The notes: generated by a model not told the origin, from the letters alone. Numbered from the stretch's first letter, positions 21,482-33,485 are shown. The stretch: DNA of 64,000 nt from Bacteroidales bacterium (GCA_023667095.1 JAMPAT010000002.1:47097-111096); one strand, 5' to 3'. A program made the numbers and translations.

Positions 21482-22546
21482 TCACAGCCTGTCCAGATGG
21501 CACATGATCAGGTTTCCGTCCTCATCGCGCAGGTGCATCCCGTTGCCCAGGCAATAGCGGAAATATCTGCAGCCAGCGCATTTGCCTGTCTTCATCCATG
21601 AACGGTCACGGTATTGCGTGAAACGGTTCTCCCAGACATCACAGAAATTATCCTTATATATATTGCCCTGATGGTAGTCGCTGCGGATGCTTGCACATGC
21701 AGAGATTGAGCCGTCCACAAGGACAGATGCCACATTCATACCCGCAGCACAGTAGAACAGATGGTCACGCACATCTCCCTCAAATTCCCCCAAAAATCCT
21801 TCGCAGCCATATCTTGCAGAAATACGCCCCTCCTTTCTTGTCTGCCTTATGAACTCCATAAGACTTCGGAACTGCTCCGCACTCAATTGAAGTTCCGGAT
21901 CGGCAGCAGCCCTGCCGACAGGGAAGACAGTAAACATCCTCCAGTTTTTCAGCCCGACAGAGATAAGATAGTCACGCAGTTGCGGCAGATATCCGATATT
22001 CTTCCCGTTTACACAAGTCACCACATCAAAATTGACTGACGGCTCGGATGCCAATATCCTGACTGCCTCAGATGCCCTTGCAAAAGAACCTTTCACACCA
22101 CGCATCCAGTCATGCTCCGCTTCAAAGCCATCAAGGCTTATTGTTGCCGAATGCAGACCGGCAGAAAGCAGTTCGTCAATCTTCCGCGGAGTCATAAGCA
22201 TACCGTTGGAGACAAGCCCCCATGGGAACTCCATGTCATAGATGGCACGCCCGCACCTGACGATGTCACTGCGCATCAAAGGCTCACCTCCTGTAAGCAT
22301 TACCATCACTTTATGTGAATCATAATGTTCCTTTACCGATTCCAGTAGCTTGGCAAAATCCACGAACGGCATGTCAGGATGAAGTGCAGACACCTTGCAG
22401 TCGCTCCCGCAATGACGGCAGCGCAAGTTGCACCTCAATGTGCATTCCCAGAACAGCTGTGTAAGCGGATGCTGCACCGCTTGATTCTTCACAATCTGGC
22501 GGTGCAGCTCCAAAGCAATCCTCTTTTTGATAGAAAGTCCGTCCAT
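21482..22546 (-). CDS. radical SAM enzyme with C-terminal SPASM (twitch/auxiliary 4Fe-4S) domain
   Basis: CNLRCRHC (CxxxCxxC) at residues 37-44; TGGEPL motif; C-terminal Cys cluster CAAGM...SAC...CAGCRYFRYC...MC typical of SPASM; 354 aa. Confidence 0.85.
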   Translation of the reverse strand: MDGLSIKKRIALELHRQIVKNQAVQHPLTQLFWECTLRCNLRCRHCGSDCKVSALHPDMPFVDFAKLLESVKEHYDSHKVMVMLTGGEPLMRSDIVRCGRAIYDMEFPWGLVSNGMLMTPRKIDELLSAGLHSATISLDGFEAEHDWMRGVKGSFARASEAVRILASEPSVNFDVVTCVNGKNIGYLPQLRDYLISVGLKNWRMFTVFPVGRAAADPELQLSAEQFRSLMEFIRQTRKEGRISARYGCEGFLGEFEGDVRDHLFYCAAGMNVASVLVDGSISACASIRSDYHQGNIYKDNFCDVWENRFTQYRDRSWMKTGKCAGCRYFRYCLGNGMHLRDEDGNLIMCHLDRL

Positions 22547-22556
22547 GGCCGATATT

Positions 22557-23048
22557 TTACTGACCTTCTCCGGTCTTCTCTGTCATCTCAACCTCGGAAG
22601 CATCATATACATATTTCCCGCGATACCAGTTACCAGCCCCCTCATTATCCACAGCTGTCAGAGGAGCAGTGACCTCAACCTCACCATAGTCTCCGTCAGA
22701 AGCGTCCAGGTCCCTGCACTTAAGTACTACATTGTCGTTGAACACCATGCCGTCGCCATTGATACTGATGAGCCCGTCCAGCCCTGTCGTATCTTTCGGC
22801 CATATAGGTCTCAGCAAGATTTCTCCGTCAGGGCGAACCTGAGTAAAAGCTTCAACCTCTATCTTTGTCAAAGGCTTTCCGGTTTCCTTGTCAACCACCT
22901 TTCCCTTGATTTCAAACTTCGAATACGGTGTACCATACTCACACATAATGTTTGAGCCAGGGTCCGGCTCACCATCGCATGCCTCAATCGAAGCAACGCC
23001 AAGGATACCCAACGCCATTCGGCACAGTCTCAGGAGAAAATCTTTCAT
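22557..23048 (-). CDS. small lipoprotein encoded 8 nt upstream of and co-oriented with the rSAM/SPASM gene (radical-SAM-associated lipoprotein)
   Basis: 163 aa; signal peptide plus lipobox SIEAC; mature protein has a beta-sandwich-like GKVVDKETGKPL segment and an acidic C-terminus; two further Cys residues. Confidence 0.6.
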   Translation of the reverse strand: MKDFLLRLCRMALGILGVASIEACDGEPDPGSNIMCEYGTPYSKFEIKGKVVDKETGKPLTKIEVEAFTQVRPDGEILLRPIWPKDTTGLDGLISINGDGMVFNDNVVLKCRDLDASDGDYGEVEVTAPLTAVDNEGAGNWYRGKYVYDASEVEMTEKTGEGQ

Positions 23049-23123: not shown

Positions 23124-24518
23124 TTATGCATCAAGTTTCCCGGAAATATACCCATGTATAGCCGCAGCTGCCTTTCGGCCTGCTCCCATGGCGAGGATTA
23201 CAGTTGCAGCTCCGGTCACGGCATCACCTCCGGCAAAGACTCCCTCACGCGATGTCACACCGTTCTCGTCAGCCACGACACATCCCCTCCTGCTGGTCTC
23301 CAGTCCGGATGTCGTACGTGCAATAAGAGGGTTAGGTGAAGTGCCGAGAGCCATAATCACGGAATCAGTCTCCACAACAAATTCAGAGTCCGGCACAGGT
23401 ACCGGAGAACGTCTTCCGCTCTCATCAGGCTCCCCAAGCTCCATCCTTATGCACTTTATTCCGCGGACCCAGCCATTTTCATCACCGAGTACCTCCACCG
23501 GATTTGTCAGCATCATGAACTTCACTCCCTCTTCCTTGGCATGGTGAACCTCCTCACGCCTTGCAGGCAGTTCCGCCTCGGTACGTCGGTAGACAATGGT
23601 AGTATCAGCCCCAAGACGCAATGCAGTACGCGCTGCATCCATGGCGACATTTCCTCCACCGACGACAACAACCTTGTCACCGGTATGTATTGGAGTCATA
23701 TAGTCGCTGCGGTAAGCTTTCATAAGATTATTTCTCGTCAGGAATTCATTGGCAGAAAAGACTCCATTGCAATTCTCGCCAGGGATACCCATGAATCTCG
23801 GTAATCCGGCACCGGAACCGATGAATACAGCAGAGAATCCCTCCTTGTCCAGCAATGAGTCGATTGTAACTGTCCTTCCGACTACCACATTGGTCTCAAT
23901 CTTCACACCGAGCTCCTTGACTGCAGCGATTTCTGCTGCAACAATCTTCTCTTTCGGAAGCCTGAACTCAGGGATACCGTATTCAAGCACTCCTCCAGCC
24001 TTGTGCAGGGCCTCGAATATCGTGACATCATATCCGAGCTTGGCAAGGTCGTATGCGCAGGCAAGCCCCGACGGCCCGCTTCCGACAATTGCCACACGAT
24101 GTCCATTGGACGGCGCTGCAACAGGCTTTACAGCCCCGTTCCCGCGGTTCCAGTCTGCAACAAAACGTTCAAGGTTTCCGATTGAGACAGGCTCTCCCTT
24201 GACACCAAGGATACAGCTCCCCTCGCACTGGGTCTCCTGAGGACAGACCCTTCCGCAGACAGCAGGAAGCGAAGAGTCCTCCGCAATCACAGCGGCAGCA
24301 GCAGCAAAATCCCCTGCCGCCACATGGCCGATGAATCCCGGTATATTGACATTGACCGGACAGGCCCCCACGCAACGCGGATTTTTGCAATGCAGGCAGC
24401 GCGAAGCCTCCCTGACAGCCTCCTCCAGGCTGTATCCATAGCTTACCTCTTCAAAATTCCTTGCCCTTGTTTCAGGGTCCTGTGCCCTTGCCGGCACCCT
24501 TGGTATTCTCTCTGCCAT
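23124..24518 (-). CDS. nfnB: NfnB-like / glutamate-synthase small-subunit-like NADPH oxidoreductase (SudA-type)
   Basis: 464 aa; N-terminal 4Fe-4S Cys motifs CLHCKNPRCVGACP and CGRVCPQETQCEGSC; two Rossmann motifs VAIVGSGPSG and VVVVGGGNVAMD. Confidence 0.85.
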   Translation of the reverse strand: MAERIPRVPARAQDPETRARNFEEVSYGYSLEEAVREASRCLHCKNPRCVGACPVNVNIPGFIGHVAAGDFAAAAAVIAEDSSLPAVCGRVCPQETQCEGSCILGVKGEPVSIGNLERFVADWNRGNGAVKPVAAPSNGHRVAIVGSGPSGLACAYDLAKLGYDVTIFEALHKAGGVLEYGIPEFRLPKEKIVAAEIAAVKELGVKIETNVVVGRTVTIDSLLDKEGFSAVFIGSGAGLPRFMGIPGENCNGVFSANEFLTRNNLMKAYRSDYMTPIHTGDKVVVVGGGNVAMDAARTALRLGADTTIVYRRTEAELPARREEVHHAKEEGVKFMMLTNPVEVLGDENGWVRGIKCIRMELGEPDESGRRSPVPVPDSEFVVETDSVIMALGTSPNPLIARTTSGLETSRRGCVVADENGVTSREGVFAGGDAVTGAATVILAMGAGRKAAAAIHGYISGKLDA

Positions 24519-25378
24519 TACTGTTTCCCCCTTCCTATTTTGCAGATGTGCGGTTCTGTTGTCTGCTCCTCAGTCCTGTACATGGACTGGCGGCGCATTG
24601 CTTCATCAAAATCCACATCATATCCATTGAACTCCGGTCCCTCGACACAGGCAAACCTCATCTTTCCGCCCACAGTGACCCTGCATGCCCCGCACATTCC
24701 TGTACCGTCAACCATCAGTGTATTGAGGCTCACGGTTATAGGCAATCCAAGCTTTTTAGCTGTAAGCGTGGCAAACTTCATCATTATCATAGGCCCGATT
24801 GCAACTGCCATAGTGTACTTATGACCATCTGCCACAAGTTTCTCCAGCATACCTGTCACAAGGCCATGGAAACCCTCGGACCCGTCATCTGTACATATAT
24901 GGAGATTATCGCAGACGCCTGCCATCTCCTTCCTGTATATCATCAGGTCAGCAGTCTTTGCACCGATAATCACATCCACAGCCACTCCCCTTTCATGGAG
25001 CCATTTCGCCTGCGGATATACGGGAGCAGTACCGACACCTCCGGCTATGAAGACATATCTCTGCCTTTTCAGCTCATCCTCCGGCATCTCCATGAATTCA
25101 GAAGGTACACCGAGCGGCCCGACAACATCAGCGAAGCAGTCACCTTCCTCCAAGGCGCAGATGTCCTGTGTAGATGCCCCTATCTTCTGCGTCACAATGG
25201 TCACCGTGCCTTTTTCAGCATCAAAGTCACTTATTGTCAACGGGATACGTTCTCCTCCTTCCTCAACCCTCACAATCAGGAACTGCCCTGGACAAGCAGA
25301 GGAGGCCAGGCGTGGTGCCTCGACCTCCATTCTGCAGACCAAAGGAGTAAGCATCTCTTTCGATACTACCCTATACAT
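24518..25378 (-). CDS. nfnA: NfnA-like / PyrK-like FAD and 2Fe-2S ferredoxin-NADP reductase subunit (SudB-type)
   Basis: 286 aa; FAD/NAD-binding fold; C-terminal CGACRV...FACVEGP cluster. Its stop shares nucleotide 24518 with the downstream gene's start (coupling). Confidence 0.8.
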   Translation of the reverse strand: MYRVVSKEMLTPLVCRMEVEAPRLASSACPGQFLIVRVEEGGERIPLTISDFDAEKGTVTIVTQKIGASTQDICALEEGDCFADVVGPLGVPSEFMEMPEDELKRQRYVFIAGGVGTAPVYPQAKWLHERGVAVDVIIGAKTADLMIYRKEMAGVCDNLHICTDDGSEGFHGLVTGMLEKLVADGHKYTMAVAIGPMIMMKFATLTAKKLGLPITVSLNTLMVDGTGMCGACRVTVGGKMRFACVEGPEFNGYDVDFDEAMRRQSMYRTEEQTTEPHICKIGRGKQ

Positions 25379-25400
25379 TACATTATATTTTTAATTCAAC

Positions 25401-25745
25401 TTATTCGTTCCTTTTCCCCTTGACCTCATATCCGAGTTTCCCTATGGCCTCAGCCAGAGTCTTCTCGTCGGTCTTCCTAGGGTCGTATGTAATCTTGACT
25501 GTCTGGTCCTCAAGTGACACCTCCAGTGCCTTCACCCCCTTTTCAAAGGAAATGTTCTCCCTGACTTTCTTGACACAGTTCTCGCAGTGCAGATGCACTT
25601 CGAATATAACTGTCTTGTTCACTGACTTAGGCTTTGCTGTGGAAACCTCTGCCATATTTCCGGAAATCTCTGCTGCCGATGAAGCAGCTGTCACCAATGT
25701 CATCAAGGCGATGACACAATAAAATATCTTTTTCATATTCTGCAA
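25401..25745 (-). CDS. secreted heavy-metal-associated (HMA) domain protein with atypical H-C-x-x-C metal site
   Basis: Signal peptide; VIFEVHLHCENCVKKV...KITYDPRKTDEKTLAEAIGKLGYEV fits the HMA beta-alpha-beta-beta-alpha-beta pattern, but HCENC replaces GMxCxxC. Confidence 0.65.
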   Translation of the reverse strand: MQNMKKIFYCVIALMTLVTAASSAAEISGNMAEVSTAKPKSVNKTVIFEVHLHCENCVKKVRENISFEKGVKALEVSLEDQTVKITYDPRKTDEKTLAEAIGKLGYEVKGKRNE

Positions 25746-25782
25746 AATTAATAATTTTTAGACTGATAATGCAAGTTCACTG

Positions 25783-27981
25783 TCAATTTGTCTTCCAGAG
25801 AGTGAAACGTACACCTGCATATACCTTTATTCCCATGAGCGGCCCCCAGATTGCGCTCGCATCGAACGAAGCCTGGTCGGCAGACACATGGCCGTTCCCG
25901 TCCCTGGCACCTCCGAGGATAACATCCTTCTGGCGGTAATTTGTCAGGTTCTCTCCACCGATATAGACATCAACACCCTTGAAACGTCTTGTAACCTGCA
26001 GATAAAGGAGAGGATACACTGGAGTAAGGCCTTTCCTGTAAATAAGGTTGCCATCCTCATCCTTCAGTTCCTTCATGAAATTGTACACCCGGCTCGGCCC
26101 GTTGACAGAAGCCGTGAAGTCAAATATCCATTTATTGAGGTTTGTGGCATACTGGAGATTGAGCACACCTTTGTAGCGGCTTGTAAGCGGCCTCTCCACA
26201 AGTCCCTGACCCTCAAGTTCAATCTTGGCATTCGTATAGCGGAAAGTCGCGGTAACAGTGAACCTCTCAATCGGCTCGATATTGAAATCCACCTGGTAGT
26301 TGTCAGTGAACGAGCGTCTTCCGTCAAGGTTATAGAAAGCAATCTGCGTAGCTGAAGAAGCGGTGTTTCCAAGTTCATAGTCCACCACCATCTGCTGTGC
26401 GAACTGGGTCCTGAAATAGTCAAAGCTGAGGTATGTGCTTGAGCCAAACGGGAAATAATATGTGATGTTTCCGCCGAAAGTCCATGCATCTTCAAGCGTA
26501 TGTGCATTGTAGTCCCCGACAAATGTCTTTCCTGTTGAGAACACACCGATATTGTCCACAAGAGGTGTTGCATATCTCAGTCCACGGCCTCCGTTTGCCC
26601 TGAGCACAATCTCGTCTATAGGGGAATATTTCAATGTGACACGCGGAGAGAACTTGAATCCGGGACCGTTATACCAGTCGCCCCTGACTCCTGCTATTGC
26701 AGAGAACTTGTCCCCTGCATGGAAAGTGTACTCACCGAACACACCGGCATTCATCAGGTCTGTACCTGTCTTCTTTCCTGCTCCCTGTACAAGCATAAAA
26801 CCGTTCAGGGTTCCGAGGGCAGGATCGAAATCACCGTTGATACGCACCATCCTCAGGAAGTCCTCATTGTACCTGTCGTATGTCCCGCTCAATCCCACGG
26901 TGAATTTATGGGACTCATTTATCTCATTCTGGTACAGCAGATTGACAAATGCAGAATGCTGTCCTGCAAGATATTTGGTCGCGCCGAAATACGAATCCAT
27001 GTCATAGTAGTTATAGTCTGCCACGACAGCGATATTCTGTGAATTGTCCTCATTCAGAGGGACTCCGACCTTGACATACCCATTGAGCGAACGGTTAAGG
27101 ATATCCGAGCCCCAGGCATGGTTTTCTGTTGCCAAGGTACCTTTATCTGCAGCAGACATGTATGATTCATGGTTATATCCGTCCTGTCCTCCACGTCTGC
27201 GGTCCTGCAGCGCCCTGACACCGAATCGCACCTGCACACCGTTGTCAGCATAATAGAGCCAGCGGTTCGCCAGATTGAACTGCAGCATCTTAGGGTCATC
27301 AAGATACCCGTCATGATTATGGTCGAAGCTCTTGATATTCCCGGATACATGACCGAGAATCACAGTGCTCCAGTTCGCACCCATCTGCAGCGAAGAGGCG
27401 ACATTGAGGTCCATCTTTGTATCGCTCATGACAGCTGCATTGATAAACAGAGGCTTCTCATCTGTAGGCTTGCGGTGCTCAAGATTGATCTGCCCTGTGA
27501 TTGATTCCACACCGTTGATTACAGAAGATGCTCCTTTTGCAATCTGTATGCTTTCAAGCCACTGTCCCGGCACGTATGAAAGTCCGAACGGTGCAGCAAG
27601 GCCACGCATCACAGGACGGTTCTCGTCAAGCATCTGGGTATATGTGCCGCTCAGCCCGAGCAGACGTATCTGGCGTGCACCTGTGACTGCATCCGAATAT
27701 CCGACAGTCACACTTGCAGAATTCTCAAAGCTTTCTGCAAGGTTGCAGCAGGCCATCTTGCACAGTCCTGCCGCAGAAATGACCTCAGTACGGATAGGCT
27801 TGCCCTTTGAAAGGTAGTTGCCGGCCTGACGCGAGACAAACACGGTTGCCTCCAGGCTGTCAGAACGGTCCTTATATATATTGGTAGTATCTATTATTTC
27901 GCCATTGGCGCCATATACCTGGGCCAAGGCAGATGGAACGGCTGCAAACACAGCCAATATTATAAACAATATCTTTTTCAT
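25783..27981 (-). CDS. TonB-dependent outer-membrane receptor (non-SusC type, 732 aa)
   Basis: Signal peptide, plug domain, long beta-barrel, C-terminal FTLWKTN aromatic end. Confidence 0.85.
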   Translation of the reverse strand: MKKILFIILAVFAAVPSALAQVYGANGEIIDTTNIYKDRSDSLEATVFVSRQAGNYLSKGKPIRTEVISAAGLCKMACCNLAESFENSASVTVGYSDAVTGARQIRLLGLSGTYTQMLDENRPVMRGLAAPFGLSYVPGQWLESIQIAKGASSVINGVESITGQINLEHRKPTDEKPLFINAAVMSDTKMDLNVASSLQMGANWSTVILGHVSGNIKSFDHNHDGYLDDPKMLQFNLANRWLYYADNGVQVRFGVRALQDRRRGGQDGYNHESYMSAADKGTLATENHAWGSDILNRSLNGYVKVGVPLNEDNSQNIAVVADYNYYDMDSYFGATKYLAGQHSAFVNLLYQNEINESHKFTVGLSGTYDRYNEDFLRMVRINGDFDPALGTLNGFMLVQGAGKKTGTDLMNAGVFGEYTFHAGDKFSAIAGVRGDWYNGPGFKFSPRVTLKYSPIDEIVLRANGGRGLRYATPLVDNIGVFSTGKTFVGDYNAHTLEDAWTFGGNITYYFPFGSSTYLSFDYFRTQFAQQMVVDYELGNTASSATQIAFYNLDGRRSFTDNYQVDFNIEPIERFTVTATFRYTNAKIELEGQGLVERPLTSRYKGVLNLQYATNLNKWIFDFTASVNGPSRVYNFMKELKDEDGNLIYRKGLTPVYPLLYLQVTRRFKGVDVYIGGENLTNYRQKDVILGGARDGNGHVSADQASFDASAIWGPLMGIKVYAGVRFTLWKTN

Positions 27982-28067
27982 ATCTATGGTTATATAGGTG
28001 AAACATCAAAATACAATCCCAGGCACAGTATTCATCTGCCGGGAAAAGGAATAAATGCCTCAATATC

Positions 28068-28538
28068 CTACAATCGCCATATACCGAGGACAGAACGGTC
28101 CACGGCACTCCCCGGCAACGGGATTTCACGAAGATGGAGACGGCCTTCACGGTCAAGCACGATACCGGCATCCTGGCCAATTTCCACAGAAAGCGGACAA
28201 TATCCGCAGATACATTTGCAGTCATGATGATGCACATGGCTGCTGTCATCCCTCACTGCCCCTGTCAGCGAAAGAAGGAACAGGTCATCTGAGCAGCATG
28301 CGTTGCCAGACATGGATGCCCCGCCACAGCATTCATGCACACAGGGATGATGACCGCAGCATTCCGCATGGCAATGGTGCTCCGGATGGAAGTCATGGCA
28401 GGTCGCACCCTCAAACAGCGGAGCCACAAACATCTCACCGCTCTCTGCACATGAATGCACATTAAAGCCCAATACGCTAAGTACATACACCAGCGCGACA
28501 AGGCCAGAAAGGCATTTTATGAGAGTTTGTTTCATCAT
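28068..28538 (-). CDS. secreted/anchored Cys- and His-rich protein (13 Cys and 12 His in about 80 residues), putative metal-binding
   Basis: N-terminal hydrophobic signal; CHDFHPEHHCHAECCGHHPCVHECCGG...ACC...HVHHHDCKCICGYCP. Co-oriented directly upstream of the TonB receptor (gap 86 nt). No recognisable family. Confidence 0.45.
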   Translation of the reverse strand: MMKQTLIKCLSGLVALVYVLSVLGFNVHSCAESGEMFVAPLFEGATCHDFHPEHHCHAECCGHHPCVHECCGGASMSGNACCSDDLFLLSLTGAVRDDSSHVHHHDCKCICGYCPLSVEIGQDAGIVLDREGRLHLREIPLPGSAVDRSVLGIWRL

Positions 28539-28575
28539 CGGCCTGCAAATTTAATAATTTTCCAAGAATATTTCC

Positions 28576-28583
28576 TAACTTTG
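28576..28583 (+). promoter_or_regulatory. candidate Bacteroides-type -7 box (TAACTTTG) for the sppA-susC operon
   Basis: Matches TAnnTTTG about 55 nt upstream of the sppA ATG, in the strand-switch region 28539-28637. Confidence 0.35.
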
Positions 28584-28637
28584 TCAAGTTTTGGCTTAAA
28601 TAAGTTCGATGACTGAAATCAAGTAAACAATTATATC

Positions 28638-30407
28638 ATGAAGAATTTTCTTAAAATGACATTGGCCACGGTCCTTGGCTTCATTATAGTGAGTATCGTG
28701 ATGTCCCTGTTCTCATTTGCAGTGATAGGCTCGCTTGCGGCACTGGGTGACAGCAAGCCGGCAATGCCGAGGGAGGCTGTCCTGAAAATAGACATGTCAG
28801 AAATGGTCATTGCAGAGCAGACAAAGGAAAGCGACCCGTTCAGCTCCATACAGGGCAACAGCACCGGATCAATCGGGATATGGCATGCCATACAGGCCAT
28901 AAACACGGCAGCAGAAGACCCTGCCATAAAGTTCATATATATGAAACCGGACGGTGTCTCAGGCGGAATGGCAGAAATAGAGGAGTTCCGCAATGCCCTG
29001 AAGAAATTCCGTGCCTCAGGGAAGGCAATCGTATCATATACGGAGGCCCCTTCAAACGGTTCGTACTACCTTGCATCGGTATCTGACAAGATCTTCATGT
29101 CCAGCTATAACGGCGGAATGAACATGCTCAACGGCTTCTCATCACAGATAACCTTCCTGAAGGACATCCTTGACAAGCTCGGAGTGAACGTACAGCTTAT
29201 CCGCCATGGCAAATACAAATCCGCAGGCGAGATGTACATCCGCAACACAATCAGCGCAGAGAACAGGACACAGTACCAGGTCCTGCTCAACTCCATCTGG
29301 AAAAGCTTCAGCGATGAGATGGCTGCTGCAAGGGGGCTGGAGACAGAGGAATTCAACTCCCTTGTAAATGACCTCAAACTCAACTCACCAGAGGACTTCC
29401 TTAAATACGGTCTTGTGGATGAACTCCTTACCAATGAAGAGCTTAAGACAAGGCTCTGCGCCCTCTACGGTGTAGACAGGATTGAGGACGCCAAACAGAT
29501 AAGCCTGAAGGACTATGCTTCAATCAAGGTCCTCCCTAACTACAGGGCAAAGGAGAAGATTGCCATAATCTACGCTGACGGAAGCATTATCGACGGTTCG
29601 GAGAAGAAGGATGTCAGCGGAGACAGGTTCGCATCCATCATCGCAGACGTAAGGAAAGACTCAACGGTAAAGGCTGTTGTATTCCGCGTGAACTCGCCTG
29701 GAGGAAGCGTTGTGGCATCAGACAAGATAAAGACAGAAGTTGACCTGCTGAAAGAAGTCAAGCCGGTCATCGCATCATACGGCAACTACGCTGCATCCGG
29801 CGGATACTGGATTTCAAACAACTGCGACAGGATTTTTGCCAATGCAGGTACGCTGACAGGCTCTATCGGGGTATTCAGCATGATTCCTGACTTCAGCGGC
29901 ACCACCAGGAAAGTCGGTGTAAACGTGACAAGCATCAGTTCAAATGCACATGGAGACATGTACAGCTGCATGAGGCCTCTCGACAACGCAGAGCTTGCAT
30001 ATATGCAGGCATCTGTGGACAACATCTACAATACTTTCACATCTATTGTAGCCGAGGGACGGGGGCTTACACAGGAATATGTCGACGGTATTGCCCAGGG
30101 ACGTGTCTGGGCGGGAACCGATGCCCTTGAGATCAGCCTTGTCGATGAAATCGGCGGCATTGAGGAGGCAATACGCTATGCTGCAGGCTCTGTAAGCGAC
30201 AATGTCGACCTTGCGAAATGGCAGATTGTAGAATATCCGAAGCCGCTTACGATGATAGAACAGCTTATGGAGAATTTCGGAGGTGCAAATGCCTCCATAT
30301 TCGCAGGAACTCCATTGGAGTCTGTTGAAAGGGTATTCAGCAAATGGGACGGAAGCAAGGCAGGGCAGGTATATGCAAGAATGCCTTACGAGATAACAAT
30401 ACAGTAG
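28638..30407 (+). CDS. sppA: signal peptide peptidase SppA (67K type, tandem ClpP/crotonase-like S49 domains)
   Basis: 589 aa, N-terminal TM segment, two S49 repeats (second with GNYAASGGYW active-site Ser region). Confidence 0.85.
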   Translation: MKNFLKMTLATVLGFIIVSIVMSLFSFAVIGSLAALGDSKPAMPREAVLKIDMSEMVIAEQTKESDPFSSIQGNSTGSIGIWHAIQAINTAAEDPAIKFIYMKPDGVSGGMAEIEEFRNALKKFRASGKAIVSYTEAPSNGSYYLASVSDKIFMSSYNGGMNMLNGFSSQITFLKDILDKLGVNVQLIRHGKYKSAGEMYIRNTISAENRTQYQVLLNSIWKSFSDEMAAARGLETEEFNSLVNDLKLNSPEDFLKYGLVDELLTNEELKTRLCALYGVDRIEDAKQISLKDYASIKVLPNYRAKEKIAIIYADGSIIDGSEKKDVSGDRFASIIADVRKDSTVKAVVFRVNSPGGSVVASDKIKTEVDLLKEVKPVIASYGNYAASGGYWISNNCDRIFANAGTLTGSIGVFSMIPDFSGTTRKVGVNVTSISSNAHGDMYSCMRPLDNAELAYMQASVDNIYNTFTSIVAEGRGLTQEYVDGIAQGRVWAGTDALEISLVDEIGGIEEAIRYAAGSVSDNVDLAKWQIVEYPKPLTMIEQLMENFGGANASIFAGTPLESVERVFSKWDGSKAGQVYARMPYEITIQ

Positions 30408-30413
30408 AAGATA

Positions 30414-33400
30414 ATGACAAGTAACCGTAGTATTATATATTCCATAATATTGCTATTTGCACTTTATGTCCTGTGCGCGCCAGGCCTGGCCGCACAGGAC
30501 AGTTCCGGTGCAGAGATGACAACAATTTCAGGAAAGGTAATAGACGCTGCAGACGGCTACCCCCTCATCGGTGTCAGTGTAATGACCGACGGTTATGGCG
30601 CAGCGACAGACATAGACGGAAAATTCGAGCTGAAGCTCCCGGCAAGGAAGTGTGAGATAACATTTTCATATATAGGCTATAAGAGCATAGTCAAGGAATT
30701 TACCGTAAAAAATGCCTCATCATTCTCCAGAATTGTCATGGAGGCCAGCACAACGGAGCTGAACGATGTTGTCGTAACCGGCGTCTATGAAAGGAAAAAG
30801 GAAAGTTTCACAGGCTCATCCGCAACATTCAAGGGAGATGAGCTTAAATCAGTAGGCTCGCAGAATGTACTGCAGAGCCTCAAGACACTTGACCCGTCCT
30901 TCAAGATAATGGAGAGCAACCTGTTCGGTTCAAACCCGAACATGATGCCGGACATAGAGATACGCGGCAAGACCAGTGTGATGGGGCTCAAGGAGGAATA
31001 TGGTTCTGACCCGAACCAGCCGCTGTTTATCCTGGACGGATTCGAGACAGACATCGAGACTGTCATGAATCTGAACATGAACCGTGTGGCATCAGTCACT
31101 ATCCTCAAGGATGCGGCATCGACTGCAATCTACGGCTCCAAGGCCTCCAACGGAGTTGTGGTCATCGAGACCAAGGCCCCTGCAAGGGGACGCCTGCAGA
31201 TTTCATATAAGGGAGACTTCGGGCTCTCAATCGCAGACCTGACTGACTACAATCTGATGAATTCATCGGAAAAGCTCCAGTTCGAGACACTTGCAGGTGT
31301 CTACAGGGACAATACCGGAGACCCGTTCAAACAGCTCCAGCTGGACAACCTGAGGAACGAACGTCTGAAAAGCATAAAGATGGGCGTTGACACATACTGG
31401 CTCAGCGAACCTATACGCACAGGCTTCACCAACAAGCACAATGTCTATGTCGAGGGAGGTGAGGAAAAGATACGCTATGGAATAGGCCTGAGCTACGGTG
31501 GAGTCCAGGGAGTCATGAAGGGCTCCGACAGGAGCACAATCGAGGGCAACATTGACCTCATATACAGGACAGGAAAGTTCCAGTTCAGCAACAAGCTTAC
31601 AATCAACAGCCTCAGCACTGCCGACCCTGCGGTTTCCTTCGAGGAATACGCACAGGCGAACCCGTACTACCGGAAATACAGCGCCGGGGGGGGCATTGAA
31701 AAATATCTTTACTATCCTTCTGAGGGCATTGATGACTATCCTGTATCGAATCCTCTCTGGAATGCGCACCTCAACAACTACGACAAGACAGCTGGATTCG
31801 GATTCACCAATAACTTCATCTTTGAATGGTTCATCCTGAAAGAGCTTCGCTTCAGGGCCAAGTTCGGTATAAAGAAGAATGACGAGAACCGGCAGACAAG
31901 GCTTTCACCGGAGCATACACAGTTTGATGATGCAGGTGAAACTGAAAAAGGCCTCTATACGCACGCGCTTACAAAGGATTTCACATACGAAGGCGATGCA
32001 GCCATAACATACGGAAAACTGTTTGCCGGCAAGCACATGGTCAATGTAGTCGGTGGCTTCAATTTCAGCAACCGGAAATACCTTGACTACAGCTATTCCG
32101 CAACTGGATTCACAGAAGACCAGTTCGATGCCCCTTCATTTGCCAACGGCTATCCTGCAGGCAGTGCTCCGGATTACGGAGAGACACACAAGAGGGCAGT
32201 AAGCTTCTACCTGAACGGAGGTTACTCATACGATGAAAGATATCTGATTGACGTAAACTACCGTCTTGACGGCGCGTCAATGTTCGGTGCAGAGAACCGC
32301 TTCAGGAACACATGGTCAGTCGGAGCAGGATGGAACATCCATAAGGAAAAGTTCCTTACTGACAAGACAGACTTCTTCCAGATACTCAAGCTTAGGGCAT
32401 CAGCAGGAAATCCGGGAAACCAGAATTTCTCGGCATACCGCGCATTCTCCACATACAAGTTCAATGGATGGATGACAAACATATTCGGTGCCGGTGTCAT
32501 TGTGAAGAACCTTGGAAACAAAGGTCTTGCATGGCAGGAAACGATTAACTATGACCTTGGTACCGATATCACGTTCTGGGGAAGCCGGATCAACATAACA
32601 TTCGACTATTTCTGGAAAAACACGGACCCTCTGCTTGCAATCATCTCCACAAAAGGCTCGATGGGAGTCAGCACAATTGCGATGAATGCCGGAGGACAGA
32701 ACACAAACGGCTGGGAGGCGACATTCAAGATCTCCCCGATATACCGTCCATCAGAAGGCATCAACTGGAACATAAGCCTGAACGCCACCAGCTCGAAGTC
32801 AAGGTACGTAAACATCGGCAATGCATTCAGTTCATTGAATGACAGCGGAAAGACATCCCTTGCCGGAACGACACGATACTACGATGGAGGAAGCCCTACA
32901 GCAATCTGGGCTGTCCGTTCTGCAGGCATTGACCCGGCTACAGGAAAGGAGCTTTTCATAAAGAAGGACGGCACATATTCATTCACATACGATACAAATG
33001 ACGAGGTTGTTGTCGGAGATACCCAGCCAAAGATAGAGGGAGTGCTCGGCACGACCCTGTATTACAAGGGGTTCTCTGTCGGATGCTATTTCAGGTACAG
33101 GCTTGGAGGGCAGACATTCAACTCCTCTCTGTTCCAGAAAGTGGAGAACATCGGCACAGAGGAGGTCTACAACAACCAGGACAGGAGGGCACTGTATGAC
33201 AGGTGGTCTGCAGACAACAGGGAAGCCTATTTCAAAGGCATCTCGATGGTGCAGAAAACAGACAAGTCATCACGGTTTGTCATGGACGAGAACACCCTGA
33301 CAGGAGAGTCATTCAATGTCGGATATGAGTTCCCGGACCGTATGATAAGGAAGCTGCATATCTCCGCACTGTCACTGCAGATGAGCCTGAATGACATATT

Positions 33401-33485
33401 CCGCGTATCATCTGTACGTATAGAAAGAGGTATCGACTATCCTTTCGCAAGGACCGTCTCATTCTCACTTGGAATAACATTCTAA
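30414..33485 (+). CDS. SusC/RagA-family TonB-dependent transporter
   Basis: 1023 aa; carboxypeptidase-regulatory-like domain, plug domain (VVVTGVYERKKESFTGS), barrel. Starts 6 nt after the sppA stop. Contains an in-frame G8 tract at 31686-31693. Confidence 0.9.
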   Translation: MTSNRSIIYSIILLFALYVLCAPGLAAQDSSGAEMTTISGKVIDAADGYPLIGVSVMTDGYGAATDIDGKFELKLPARKCEITFSYIGYKSIVKEFTVKNASSFSRIVMEASTTELNDVVVTGVYERKKESFTGSSATFKGDELKSVGSQNVLQSLKTLDPSFKIMESNLFGSNPNMMPDIEIRGKTSVMGLKEEYGSDPNQPLFILDGFETDIETVMNLNMNRVASVTILKDAASTAIYGSKASNGVVVIETKAPARGRLQISYKGDFGLSIADLTDYNLMNSSEKLQFETLAGVYRDNTGDPFKQLQLDNLRNERLKSIKMGVDTYWLSEPIRTGFTNKHNVYVEGGEEKIRYGIGLSYGGVQGVMKGSDRSTIEGNIDLIYRTGKFQFSNKLTINSLSTADPAVSFEEYAQANPYYRKYSAGGGIEKYLYYPSEGIDDYPVSNPLWNAHLNNYDKTAGFGFTNNFIFEWFILKELRFRAKFGIKKNDENRQTRLSPEHTQFDDAGETEKGLYTHALTKDFTYEGDAAITYGKLFAGKHMVNVVGGFNFSNRKYLDYSYSATGFTEDQFDAPSFANGYPAGSAPDYGETHKRAVSFYLNGGYSYDERYLIDVNYRLDGASMFGAENRFRNTWSVGAGWNIHKEKFLTDKTDFFQILKLRASAGNPGNQNFSAYRAFSTYKFNGWMTNIFGAGVIVKNLGNKGLAWQETINYDLGTDITFWGSRINITFDYFWKNTDPLLAIISTKGSMGVSTIAMNAGGQNTNGWEATFKISPIYRPSEGINWNISLNATSSKSRYVNIGNAFSSLNDSGKTSLAGTTRYYDGGSPTAIWAVRSAGIDPATGKELFIKKDGTYSFTYDTNDEVVVGDTQPKIEGVLGTTLYYKGFSVGCYFRYRLGGQTFNSSLFQKVENIGTEEVYNNQDRRALYDRWSADNREAYFKGISMVQKTDKSSRFVMDENTLTGESFNVGYEFPDRMIRKLHISALSLQMSLNDIFRVSSVRIERGIDYPFARTVSFSLGITF

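Follow-up and report, generated by a model that had tools for sequence, protein, structure and literature searches.

A Cys/His-rich leader gene as a candidate nascent-chain metal sensor in a probable metal-uptake operon of Bacteroidales

Introduction

Nascent-chain metal switches, CruR and CutF, have so far been proven for copper only, in two Proteobacteria, and we know of no riboswitch for zinc or copper. Here we describe a candidate for a further such switch, encoded on the minus strand of a 64,000-nucleotide stretch of Bacteroidales DNA (GCA_023667095.1, JAMPAT010000002.1:47097-111096; hereafter the window, with positions counted from its first nucleotide). The candidate is a leader gene of the upstream-open-reading-frame type (28068..28538) whose product is a Cys/His-rich protein of 156 amino acids. 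It stands ahead of genes for a TonB-dependent receptor (TBDR) and for a secreted protein of the HMA fold, and we propose that its product may sense metal while it is still being made.

The closest described system, CruR (Bp2923, DUF2946), is encoded by the first gene of bp2923-bfrG-bp2921 in Bordetella pertussis (PMC9426467). CruR carries an export signal, a CXXC motif and a C-terminal RAPP sequence, with 45 intervening residues (give or take one or two), and is predicted to be unstructured (PMC9426467). The downstream TonB-dependent transporter (TBDT) stays on as long as there is stalling at RAPP; copper lifts the stall, and the transporter is switched off (PMC9426467); the arrest itself has been shown in vitro (PMC12992588). 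In the cutFOG operon of Rhodobacter capsulatus, stalling of the exported nascent chain of CutF opens a stem-loop in which the start region of cutO is otherwise concealed (PMC9973294; 10.1101/2025.02.05.636593). A rule-based set of 'CutF-like' proteins is 19% Bacteroidota, or 40% when normalised for available proteomes, and TonB-like proteins form the second commonest class of downstream neighbours in the set overall (PMC9973294). Arrest at a stop codon is itself described in Bacteroidota, where NSP-stop and NAP-stop peptides act in the leaders of secA and secDF (PMC10987492). We read the window locus in CruR/CutF-type terms because the first-gene position, the export segment, the Cys/His motif, the fixed spacing from motif to stop codon and the mRNA helix in the spacer all match.

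Results

A conserved trio of genes

An initial annotation of this DNA had proposed a metal-scavenging operon of three co-oriented genes with short gaps. We found the three open reading frames (ORFs) on the minus strand where it had placed them: the Cys/His-rich ORF is followed by the 732-amino-acid TBDR (25783..27981) after 86 nt, and the TBDR by the HMA ORF (25401..25745, counted from a TTG) after 37 nt. The same synteny is present in dozens of Bacteroidales genomes. At all six places in metagenome loci that encode the homologue P0005, the order is a divergent sppA, the Cys/His ORF and the TBDR, with the HMA gene following in five of the six, and the genes outside the trio vary from locus to locus. 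Using the TBDR as an anchor, we retrieved 80 species-level genomes, mostly uncultured Bacteroidales metagenome-assembled genomes that include many Candidatus Cryptobacteroides and some Muribaculaceae and Rikenellaceae. A hidden Markov model of the Cys/His family matched directly upstream of the TBDR, on the same strand, in 54 of these 80 loci, and at least 60 of the 77 loci with enough downstream sequence had an HMA ORF following the TBDR. No conserved modifying enzyme or exporter was found beside the trio among the compared loci.

The first protein contains 15 Cys and 14 His in total. Its Cys/His-rich character had been recognised correctly, and only the count of its core needed correcting, from 13 Cys and 12 His to 14 Cys and 13 His within residues 28-122. 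A word-indexed search returned 12 homologues, and a profile search of 1.84 billion representatives returned 321 cluster representatives at E<=1e-3 (clusters at 50% identity), 174 of them at E<=1e-10. The window protein itself has no match in Pfam or NCBIfam, a cluster look-up gave 'hypothetical protein' only, and a word-indexed search with a sister subgroup that ends in a Pro-Pro motif (the PP subgroup, described below) added no new relatives and no named proteins. The earlier view that the protein belongs to no annotated family holds in this sense for the window copy; among its relatives there are weak matches, below threshold, to the NCBIfam family HYC_CC_PP (NF047658, function unknown). HYC_CC_PP is the sole family matched by more than one relative (3 of 13 and 7 of 43 in two sets; best E 0.0023 to 0.15, with one match scored at 10.1 bits), and the match of the relative P0254 spans the N-terminal two thirds in register. 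The window protein has no NCBIfam match to HYC_CC_PP, and a literature search found no report on this family. The possibility that the ORF is spurious, which had been raised at the outset, is rejected by its homologues, its conserved synteny and its promoter.

The first gene diverges rapidly and is dispensable

Upon comparison of the three genes within the same genomes, we noticed that the leader is by far the least conserved. Mean identity to the window copy is 38% for the leader, 76% for the TBDR and 66% for the HMA core, which puts the divergence of the leader at about three times the rate of its neighbours. AlphaFold2, run with the family alignment, returned no fold for it (mean predicted local distance difference test score, pLDDT, of 43.9), and the N-terminal helix of residues 2-22 alone was moderately confident. 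About 20 related loci (roughly a quarter) have no leader ORF despite ample upstream sequence, with the TBDR intact and the HMA gene mostly present. At most of these leader-less loci the TBDR directly abuts the divergent sppA gene. A structural metal-binding role is disfavoured because the gene is dispensable, fast-diverging and without a predicted fold, and because no maturase is conserved alongside it. The first gene is most likely a regulatory leader and not a capture protein.

Metal-type motifs keep their distance to the stop codon

The leader protein opens with a hydrophobic segment, residues 6-24 (LIKCLSGLVALVYVLSVLG; 28467..28523, minus strand), that has a Kyte-Doolittle maximum of 2.15 over 19 residues, coincides with the predicted helix 2-22 and would serve as an export signal or membrane anchor. 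Y18 and G24 are invariant in the family alignments. The segment is followed at once by an N-module of invariant columns, H28-x-C30 ... C47-xxx-H51-P-E-H-H-C56 (28371..28457, minus strand), in which the spacing from HxC to CxxxHP is 19 residues in 100 of about 110 representatives. A CCSDD motif (C81-C82; 28284..28298, minus strand) comes next, and H28, C30, C47, H51, C81 and C82 are all invariant or nearly so. Between CxxxHP and CC lies a His/Cys-rich insert of 18-59 residues, the most length-variable part of the protein.

Downstream of this insert the spacing tightens. The distance from CC to the C-terminus has a median of 74 residues (+/- about 3) and is mostly 70-79 (n=129). The window protein also carries an optional CxxC(P) motif, C107-K-C-I-C-G-Y-C114-P (C111-G-Y-C114-P; 28194..28220, minus strand), whose second Cys is 43 residues from the C-terminus; 30 of 134 representatives have the motif, and in 25 of them its distance to the end is 42-46 residues. 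The metal-type motifs therefore hold a fixed distance to the stop codon, not to the N-terminus.

The extreme C-terminus is itself conserved. In the window it reads S-V-L-G-I-W-R-L followed by a TAG stop (28068..28094, minus strand), and family conservation points to [IV]-W-R-[IV]-stop as a candidate arrest motif. R-[IVLAM]-stop ends 134 of 150 representatives, most commonly as IWRI (48) or VWRI (38). Trp(-3) is kept in 45 of 55 loci and Arg(-2) in 52 of 55, the latter through all six Arg codons, which indicates selection on the peptide. The last 15 residues of the window leader, PGSAVDRSVLGIWRL, contain neither PP nor RAPP. In the PP sister subgroup (profile E about 1e-12 to 1e-15) the end reads PP-x(8-9)-C-[VI]-L-R-V-stop, with PP 11-13 residues from the end, and its members lie upstream of the same TBDR and have an identical promoter spacing.

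A predicted, covarying mRNA helix runs from the leader stop to the receptor start

The codons for these last residues also take part in a long-range mRNA helix, which we identified from minimum free energy (MFE) folds, duplex energies and covariation. Its 5' arm comprises the codons of I153-W-R-L156, the stop codon and the next 14 nt (28054..28081, minus strand). Its 3' arm, supported by the folds and by a shared motif, covers positions -4 to -26 relative to the TBDR ATG (27985..28007, minus strand) and lies over the translation initiation region. The window segment 27970-28094 folds with an MFE of -33.9 kcal/mol (z -2.4; equalled by 4 of 200 shuffles), and the two arms form a duplex of -16.2 kcal/mol through the pairings UAUGG/CCAUA, UGUAGG/CCUAUA and UGAGGCAUU/GAUGUUUCA. 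In MFE folds across loci, the common form of the 5' arm is (A/G)UCUGG-[Arg codon]-AUCUGAUU, which spells the I/V-W, I and stop codons. The common 3' arm is AAUCAGA...CCAGA; most loci have it 0-11 nt ahead of the TBDR AUG, at a distance that varies. The loop between the arms ranges from about 30 to 250 nt and includes repeat insertions in some genomes.

We compared the arms across 50-53 loci. Paired with its own 3' window, the 5' arm reaches -13.7 kcal/mol, versus -9.9 with shuffled windows and -10.8 with those of other loci (Wilcoxon p about 1e-6). For the 26 loci with a non-canonical 5' arm, own-own pairing gives -10.8 kcal/mol versus -7.8 for a canonical 5' arm with the own 3' arm and -8.6 for the own 5' arm with a canonical 3' arm (p 0.005). 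Clear compensatory changes are seen in the window and in five other loci (L009, L056, L063, L068 and L074). The helix covaries across loci. In 44 of 53 loci the MFE fold contains it with 5 bp or more; a test for exact 6-mer complements was too strict for shifts of register and G-U pairs. The 3' arm motif (AATCAGA..CCAGA) precedes the TBDR ATG in 30 of 54 loci with a leader versus 1 of 24 leader-less loci. Codon choice in the 5' arm is biased toward the pairing bases: ATC accounts for 37 of 47 Ile(-1) codons, C fills the third position of codon -4 in 41 of 50 loci, and 43 of 55 stop codons are TGA. An Rfam scan of 25000-29200 found no riboswitch and no known RNA.

Five spacers (L022, L026, L029, L041 and L048) contain 2-4 tandem copies of a unit with (T)GTCATCCTGA(G/C), possibly similar to repetitive extragenic palindromic elements or miniature inverted-repeat transposable elements. 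These repeat-bearing spacers reach 247 nt and retain the closing arms.

One promoter precedes the leader

TAnnTTTG is the -7 box of Bacteroidetes promoters, as established in promoter studies of Bacteroides fragilis and Bacteroides thetaiotaomicron. The window has such a box, TAAATTTG (28546..28553, minus strand), 8-15 nt ahead of its leader ATG. Of 49 loci, 41 have an exact TAnnTTTG in the 110 nt ahead of the leader ATG, mostly starting 13-17 nt before it. A box so near the ATG implies that the transcript has a very short 5' leader or none. The 54 leader-TBDR spacers, 6152 nt altogether, are free of TAnnTTTG boxes, and a generic scan for sigma-70 promoters and terminators returned nothing useful in the leader-TBDR spacer. 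With a box ahead of the leader and none behind it, the trio behaves as the co-transcribed unit that had been supposed. At leader-less loci, the -7 box often stands directly before the TBDR.

The initial annotation had pointed to the upstream region as a place for Fur/Zur-like operators, and our search of the operon's upstream region found no operator of the Fur/Zur type. A palindrome there, AACTTgacaAAGTT, was considered as such an operator and dropped, as it contains a -7 box of the divergent sppA. This candidate sppA box, TAACTTTG (28576-28583, plus strand), is arranged back-to-back with the leader promoter. At two leader-less loci, FecR-like anti-sigma genes identified with Pfam lie just upstream of the TBDR on the opposite strand (L065 2054-3118 and L073 2091-3888, both minus strand), and L073 also has a gene for an extracytoplasmic function (ECF) sigma factor. 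We set ECF sigma/FecR aside as alternative regulators of the leader-less loci, since the genes point away from the TBDR; they may serve another transporter.

The TonB-dependent receptor

The second gene is the TBDR that had been predicted, with the Pfam domains Plug (PF07715) and TonB_dep_Rec_b-barrel (PF00593) both above their cut-offs. Its clade is highly conserved in Bacteroidales: we found 6073 homologues, many at 73-89% identity. Single-sequence and profile searches of PDB sequences gave no relative, and NCBIfam gave no OprC-type match (TIGR01778). The AlphaFold2 model shows a barrel of the 22-strand type that matches solved TBDTs in Foldseek with probability 1.0 at 10-13% identity. The barrel alone was modelled, and the plug has a pLDDT of about 20-25.

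The poorly modelled plug includes the motif C74-K-M-A-C78-C79 (27745..27762, minus strand), of which K-M-A-C-C is invariant in the clade; an extra Cys at -4 is present in most members. Among the loci inspected for the plug (L024-L085), C-K-M-A-C-C is found in all those with a leader, and several leader-less ones have [HNKQRS]-K-M-A-C-C, a difference that may be phylogenetic and not functional. The conserved Cys and Met of K-M-A-C-C recall in kind the Cys/Met/His site of OprC. Between predicted barrel strands 3 and 4, residues 220-229 (27295-27324, minus strand) form a highly conserved segment, D-H-N-H-D-G-Y-L-D-D, that reads D-H-N-H-D-G-[FY]-L-D-D in related TBDRs. It probably lies in an extracellular loop, and its DxNxDG pattern could be a structural calcium site or, with its two His, a site of metal capture. 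Literature searches found no report on a TBDR combined with an HMA protein in Bacteroidetes, and nothing relevant on Bacteroides, zinc and Zur, a review of metals in the gut included.

The HMA protein and the metal

The third gene encodes a candidate periplasmic metallochaperone with a signal peptide. Its PF00403 match (E 1.7e-16; 60.8 bits against a cut-off of 24.8) and its non-canonical metal site agree with the earlier description of a secreted HMA-fold protein. The ATG at 25736 (MKKIFY...) is more plausibly its start than the TTG at 25745. As read from the sequence, the metal site is H-L-H-C-E-N-C (C54-x-x-C57; 25575..25595, minus strand) in place of the canonical GMxCxxC. Across 60 loci the site is HCxxC in 55 (HxHCxxC in 33) and DCxxC in five. 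In NCBIfam the window protein falls below the equivalog cut-offs of both CopZ and MerP (45.4 versus 91 for CopZ_Bs; 33 versus 92.6 for MerP). His-rich C-terminal tails, such as HHHHGHDHQH and GHSHGHSHDHDHAHDHGHSHEH, occur in at least 23 of the 60 loci (L016, L018, L020, L021, L023, L034, L035 and others), and the HMA protein of L051 ends in a repeat tail rich in Cys, Lys and Asp. Neither type of tail is present in the window protein.

A His or Asp before CxxC is a hallmark of divalent-metal HMA sites, as in ZntA (GMDCxxC), and not of Cu(I) chaperones; in ZntA, this Asp completes the divalent-metal site. To our knowledge, the strict anaerobes of this group have little use for copper. Zinc or another divalent ion is favoured over copper because of the H/D-CxxC motif, the His-rich HMA tails and this limited use of copper by these anaerobes. 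Zinc is the leading candidate, which we put forward tentatively. Copper seems rather unlikely, nickel or cobalt more so, and any other metal least likely. In outline the locus fits the metal operon that had been suspected, for a thiophilic or borderline transition metal, and we are fairly confident that it serves metal uptake.

Neighbouring genes

The sppA gene (28638-30407, plus strand), which encodes a signal peptide peptidase, is divergent from the operon across a region of 99 nt. SppA adjoins the operon in the window, at all six P0005 loci and at most inspected genome loci, whether or not a leader is present. A released, membrane-anchored leader product could in principle be an SppA substrate; the adjacency may be plain synteny, because the neighbourhood persists without the leader. 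Six nt past sppA lies an ORF of 1023 amino acids (30414-33485, plus strand) whose N-terminus resembles SusC/RagA-type TonB-linked transporters, and a following ORF of 484 amino acids may be a SusD-like partner; both assignments go by sequence appearance only.

On the other side, an NfnAB-like pair (23124-25378, minus strand), consisting of a sulfide/dihydroorotate dehydrogenase-like FAD/NAD-binding subunit and a GltD-like NADPH-dependent subunit, begins 22 nt past the HMA stop codon and in this genome may share a transcript with the operon. Elsewhere this place is taken by different genes. Beyond it, at 21482-23048 (minus strand), are a TIGR04133 radical SAM/SPASM protein (558 bits) and its partner TIGR04134, a 'radical SAM-associated putative lipoprotein'. 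TIGR04133/TIGR04134 is a known, functionally uncharacterised Bacteroidales gene pair that in other genomes does not lie beside the metal operon.

Discussion

A model for the leader

On balance, and by analogy with CruR and CutF, we lean toward the leader being a cis-acting nascent-chain metal sensor that controls the TBDR and HMA genes. The support for this reading is computed: the operon structure, the promoter position, the conservation of motifs and spacings, the divergence of the leader, the lack of a predicted fold, its dispensability and the covarying helix. In the mechanism that we envisage, the single -7 box would give one transcription unit for a regulatory leader, an outer-membrane importer and a periplasmic HMA protein that would receive the imported metal. 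Translation of the leader would begin on a near-leaderless mRNA, and the N-terminal hydrophobic segment would bring the nascent chain to the membrane. A ribosome that reaches the last leader codons, I-W-R-L-stop, would pause on the conserved C-terminal peptide. Occupying the 5' arm of the helix, it would free the 25 nt before the TBDR start, allowing translation of the TBDR and the HMA protein. Metal that binds the Cys/His motifs (CC about 74 and CxxC about 43 residues from the stop), while the chain emerges or once it is exported, would release the pause. Once the ribosome has gone, the helix would re-form and uptake would be turned off, a feedback repression by the imported metal. In this mechanism we infer that the ribosome pauses and that the system responds to metal, as well as which metal it is and in which direction it regulates.

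Several observations weigh against the sensor. Arrest in CruR and CutF needs RAPP or poly-proline, which are absent here, and [IV]WR[IV]-stop has no record as an arrest sequence. The window leader has no Pfam match to DUF2946, and the link to HYC_CC_PP is sub-threshold, the relatives' matches lying far below the 28-bit cut-off. The AlphaFold2 run used 13 sequences and no metal and may miss a real, metal-dependent fold. The RNA helix itself accounts for part of the C-terminal conservation, as the codon bias shows. About eight loci have no convincing helix in the windows used, and controls also show end-to-end pairing of at least 5 bp in 55-66% of MFE folds; the MFE-occurrence test is weak because the controls are high too. 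For the TBDR, transporters of siderophores, B12 and pyrroloquinoline quinone as well as ZnuD and OprC match the barrel equally poorly, which precludes any inference about the substrate.

The alternatives differ in what they make of the protein itself. It could be a structural component of uptake, a membrane-anchored or lipidated metal binder in the periplasm or at the surface whose task would be to capture or buffer metal on behalf of the TBDR or the HMA protein, with the helix present only for stoichiometric coupling. We regard this as unlikely, but it is the rival that we take most seriously. The export signal, the 15 Cys and 14 His with their conserved motifs, and the constant company of the TBDR wherever the leader is present are what one would expect of such a component; the conserved Cys of V-H-S/T-C, which immediately follows the hydrophobic segment, might mark a site for lipoprotein processing or for signal peptidase, and CutF too was first conjectured to be a chaperone. 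Against it stand the roughly 20 otherwise intact TBDR-HMA loci that do without the leader, an identity half that of the TBDR (38% versus 76%) with no predicted fold, and the conservation of the extreme C-terminus and of the position of the stop. A folded domain is also hard to reconcile with metal motifs that are spaced from the stop codon and not from each other. The metallothionein-like or metallophore-binding role in surface capture, which the initial annotation had preferred, gives way for the same reasons: the leader is dispensable, diverges fast and has no predicted fold, and what it conserves looks sensor-like.

If the protein does act in cis, it need not sense metal. Translation might simply open the helix, which from leader stop to TBDR start would give coupling without any pause, and the Cys and His might serve another end such as periplasmic redox or disulfide sensing. 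Cys pairs could report on oxidative folding, and RAPP leaders do precede DsbA and thioredoxin genes (PMC12992588). Yet coupling needs no exported leader of 150 amino acids, no invariant His and Cys and no fixed distance from Cys to stop, and the downstream genes are metal-related; we consider this reading improbable. We give hardly any credence to a further proposal, also made at the outset, that the ORF is a precursor from which a ribosomally made, metallophore-like metal-binding peptide is processed. The Cys/His-rich core would suit it, and a radical SAM/SPASM gene lies 3 kb off in the window, but that gene belongs to its own TIGR04133/TIGR04134 pair. The neighbours of the trio differ by locus and include no conserved maturase or exporter. 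Moreover, conservation falls on the hydrophobic N-terminus and the C-terminal motif, and length varies most (18-59 residues) in the Cys/His-rich stretch that joins the N-module to CC. The reading as a precursor of a ribosomally synthesised and post-translationally modified peptide was rejected for want of a conserved maturase.

For the nascent-chain sensor, then, a more specific form can be tentatively advanced: the leader may represent an undescribed class of gut Bacteroidales sensors in which a ribosome terminating on a proline-free [IV]-W-R-[IV]-stop peptide pauses until a divalent metal, probably zinc, releases it. If true, zinc (or another non-copper metal) would gain its first protein-based post-transcriptional switch and Bacteroidota their first tested member, and a new arrest motif would be added to the proline motifs. 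It would also mean that Bacteroidales tune outer-membrane metal uptake without a classical Fur/Zur operator at this locus, and that many Cys/His-rich 'hypothetical proteins' are better annotated as cis-regulatory leaders than as metal-binding proteins. With a clear RNA helix, and with helix arms, a C-terminal peptide and Cys/His motifs that are all easy to mutate, the leader family offers a widespread natural test case in a dominant gut phylum.

Comparison with known systems

The downstream genes resemble described metal proteins in part. Like ZnuD (Neisseria, zinc) and OprC (Pseudomonas, copper), the window TBDR is tied by its context to a transition metal and not to a siderophore; its structural match to them, at 12-13% identity, is no better than the generic TBDT matches. 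In the HMA proteins of the window family, as in the N-terminal domain of ZntA (GMDCxxC), the residue that precedes the first Cys is a ligand of hard or borderline type. The proteins differ from that domain in that the window protein is secreted and stands alone, outside any P-type ATPase, and in the extra upstream His (HxHCxxC) of 33 of the 60 loci. The Cu(I) chaperones CopZ and Atx1 have GMT/SCxxC, from which HLHCENC differs.

The leader family partly resembles HYC_CC_PP in the order of its elements, with a hydrophobic N-terminus followed by HxC, CC and a C-terminal Pro motif. In the window protein HSC replaces HYC, CC is present, and PLPGS stands in place of PP, which the sister subgroup does have.

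With CutF, the leader would share sensing through an exported nascent chain and a stem over the next start, and its spacer of 86 nt is within the <100 nt of that system. It fails two of the 'CutF-like' filters, being 156 residues long (limit <150) and having no PP in its last 15 residues; the PP sister subgroup of the same family does carry the required C-terminal PP motif (PMC9973294). The expected output also differs: under CutF, copper switches on a detoxifying enzyme, whereas the window importer would be turned off.

The likeness to CruR goes further. Both leaders come first in a three-gene operon with a TonB-dependent transporter second, are about 150 amino acids long with an N-terminal export signal, carry a Cys motif at a fixed spacing from a C-terminal motif near the stop, and are predicted to be unstructured. 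Both operons have a non-trivial intergenic spacer, and in both the expected logic is that metal sufficiency turns uptake off. The optional CxxC of the window family, 42-46 residues from the end, comes near the 45 intervening residues of CruR. The window leader lacks DUF2946, RAPP and Pro-Pro and ends instead in [IV]-W-R-[IV]-stop; the window protein has no Pfam match, and none of 43 relatives matches DUF2946 at E<=1. The additional invariant motifs of the window family, HxC, CxxxHPxHxC and CC, mix His and Cys. The RNA device of CruR is Rho-dependent termination in the leader-TBDT spacer, and that of the window is an apparent occluding helix. The third gene encodes a PepSY_TM protein in the one case and an HMA chaperone in the other, and the window host is an anaerobic member of the Bacteroidales, in which the metal is probably not copper. 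Taken by its sequence, the window protein is best described as a putative proline-less variant, in a Bacteroidales branch, of the CutF/CruR-like kind.

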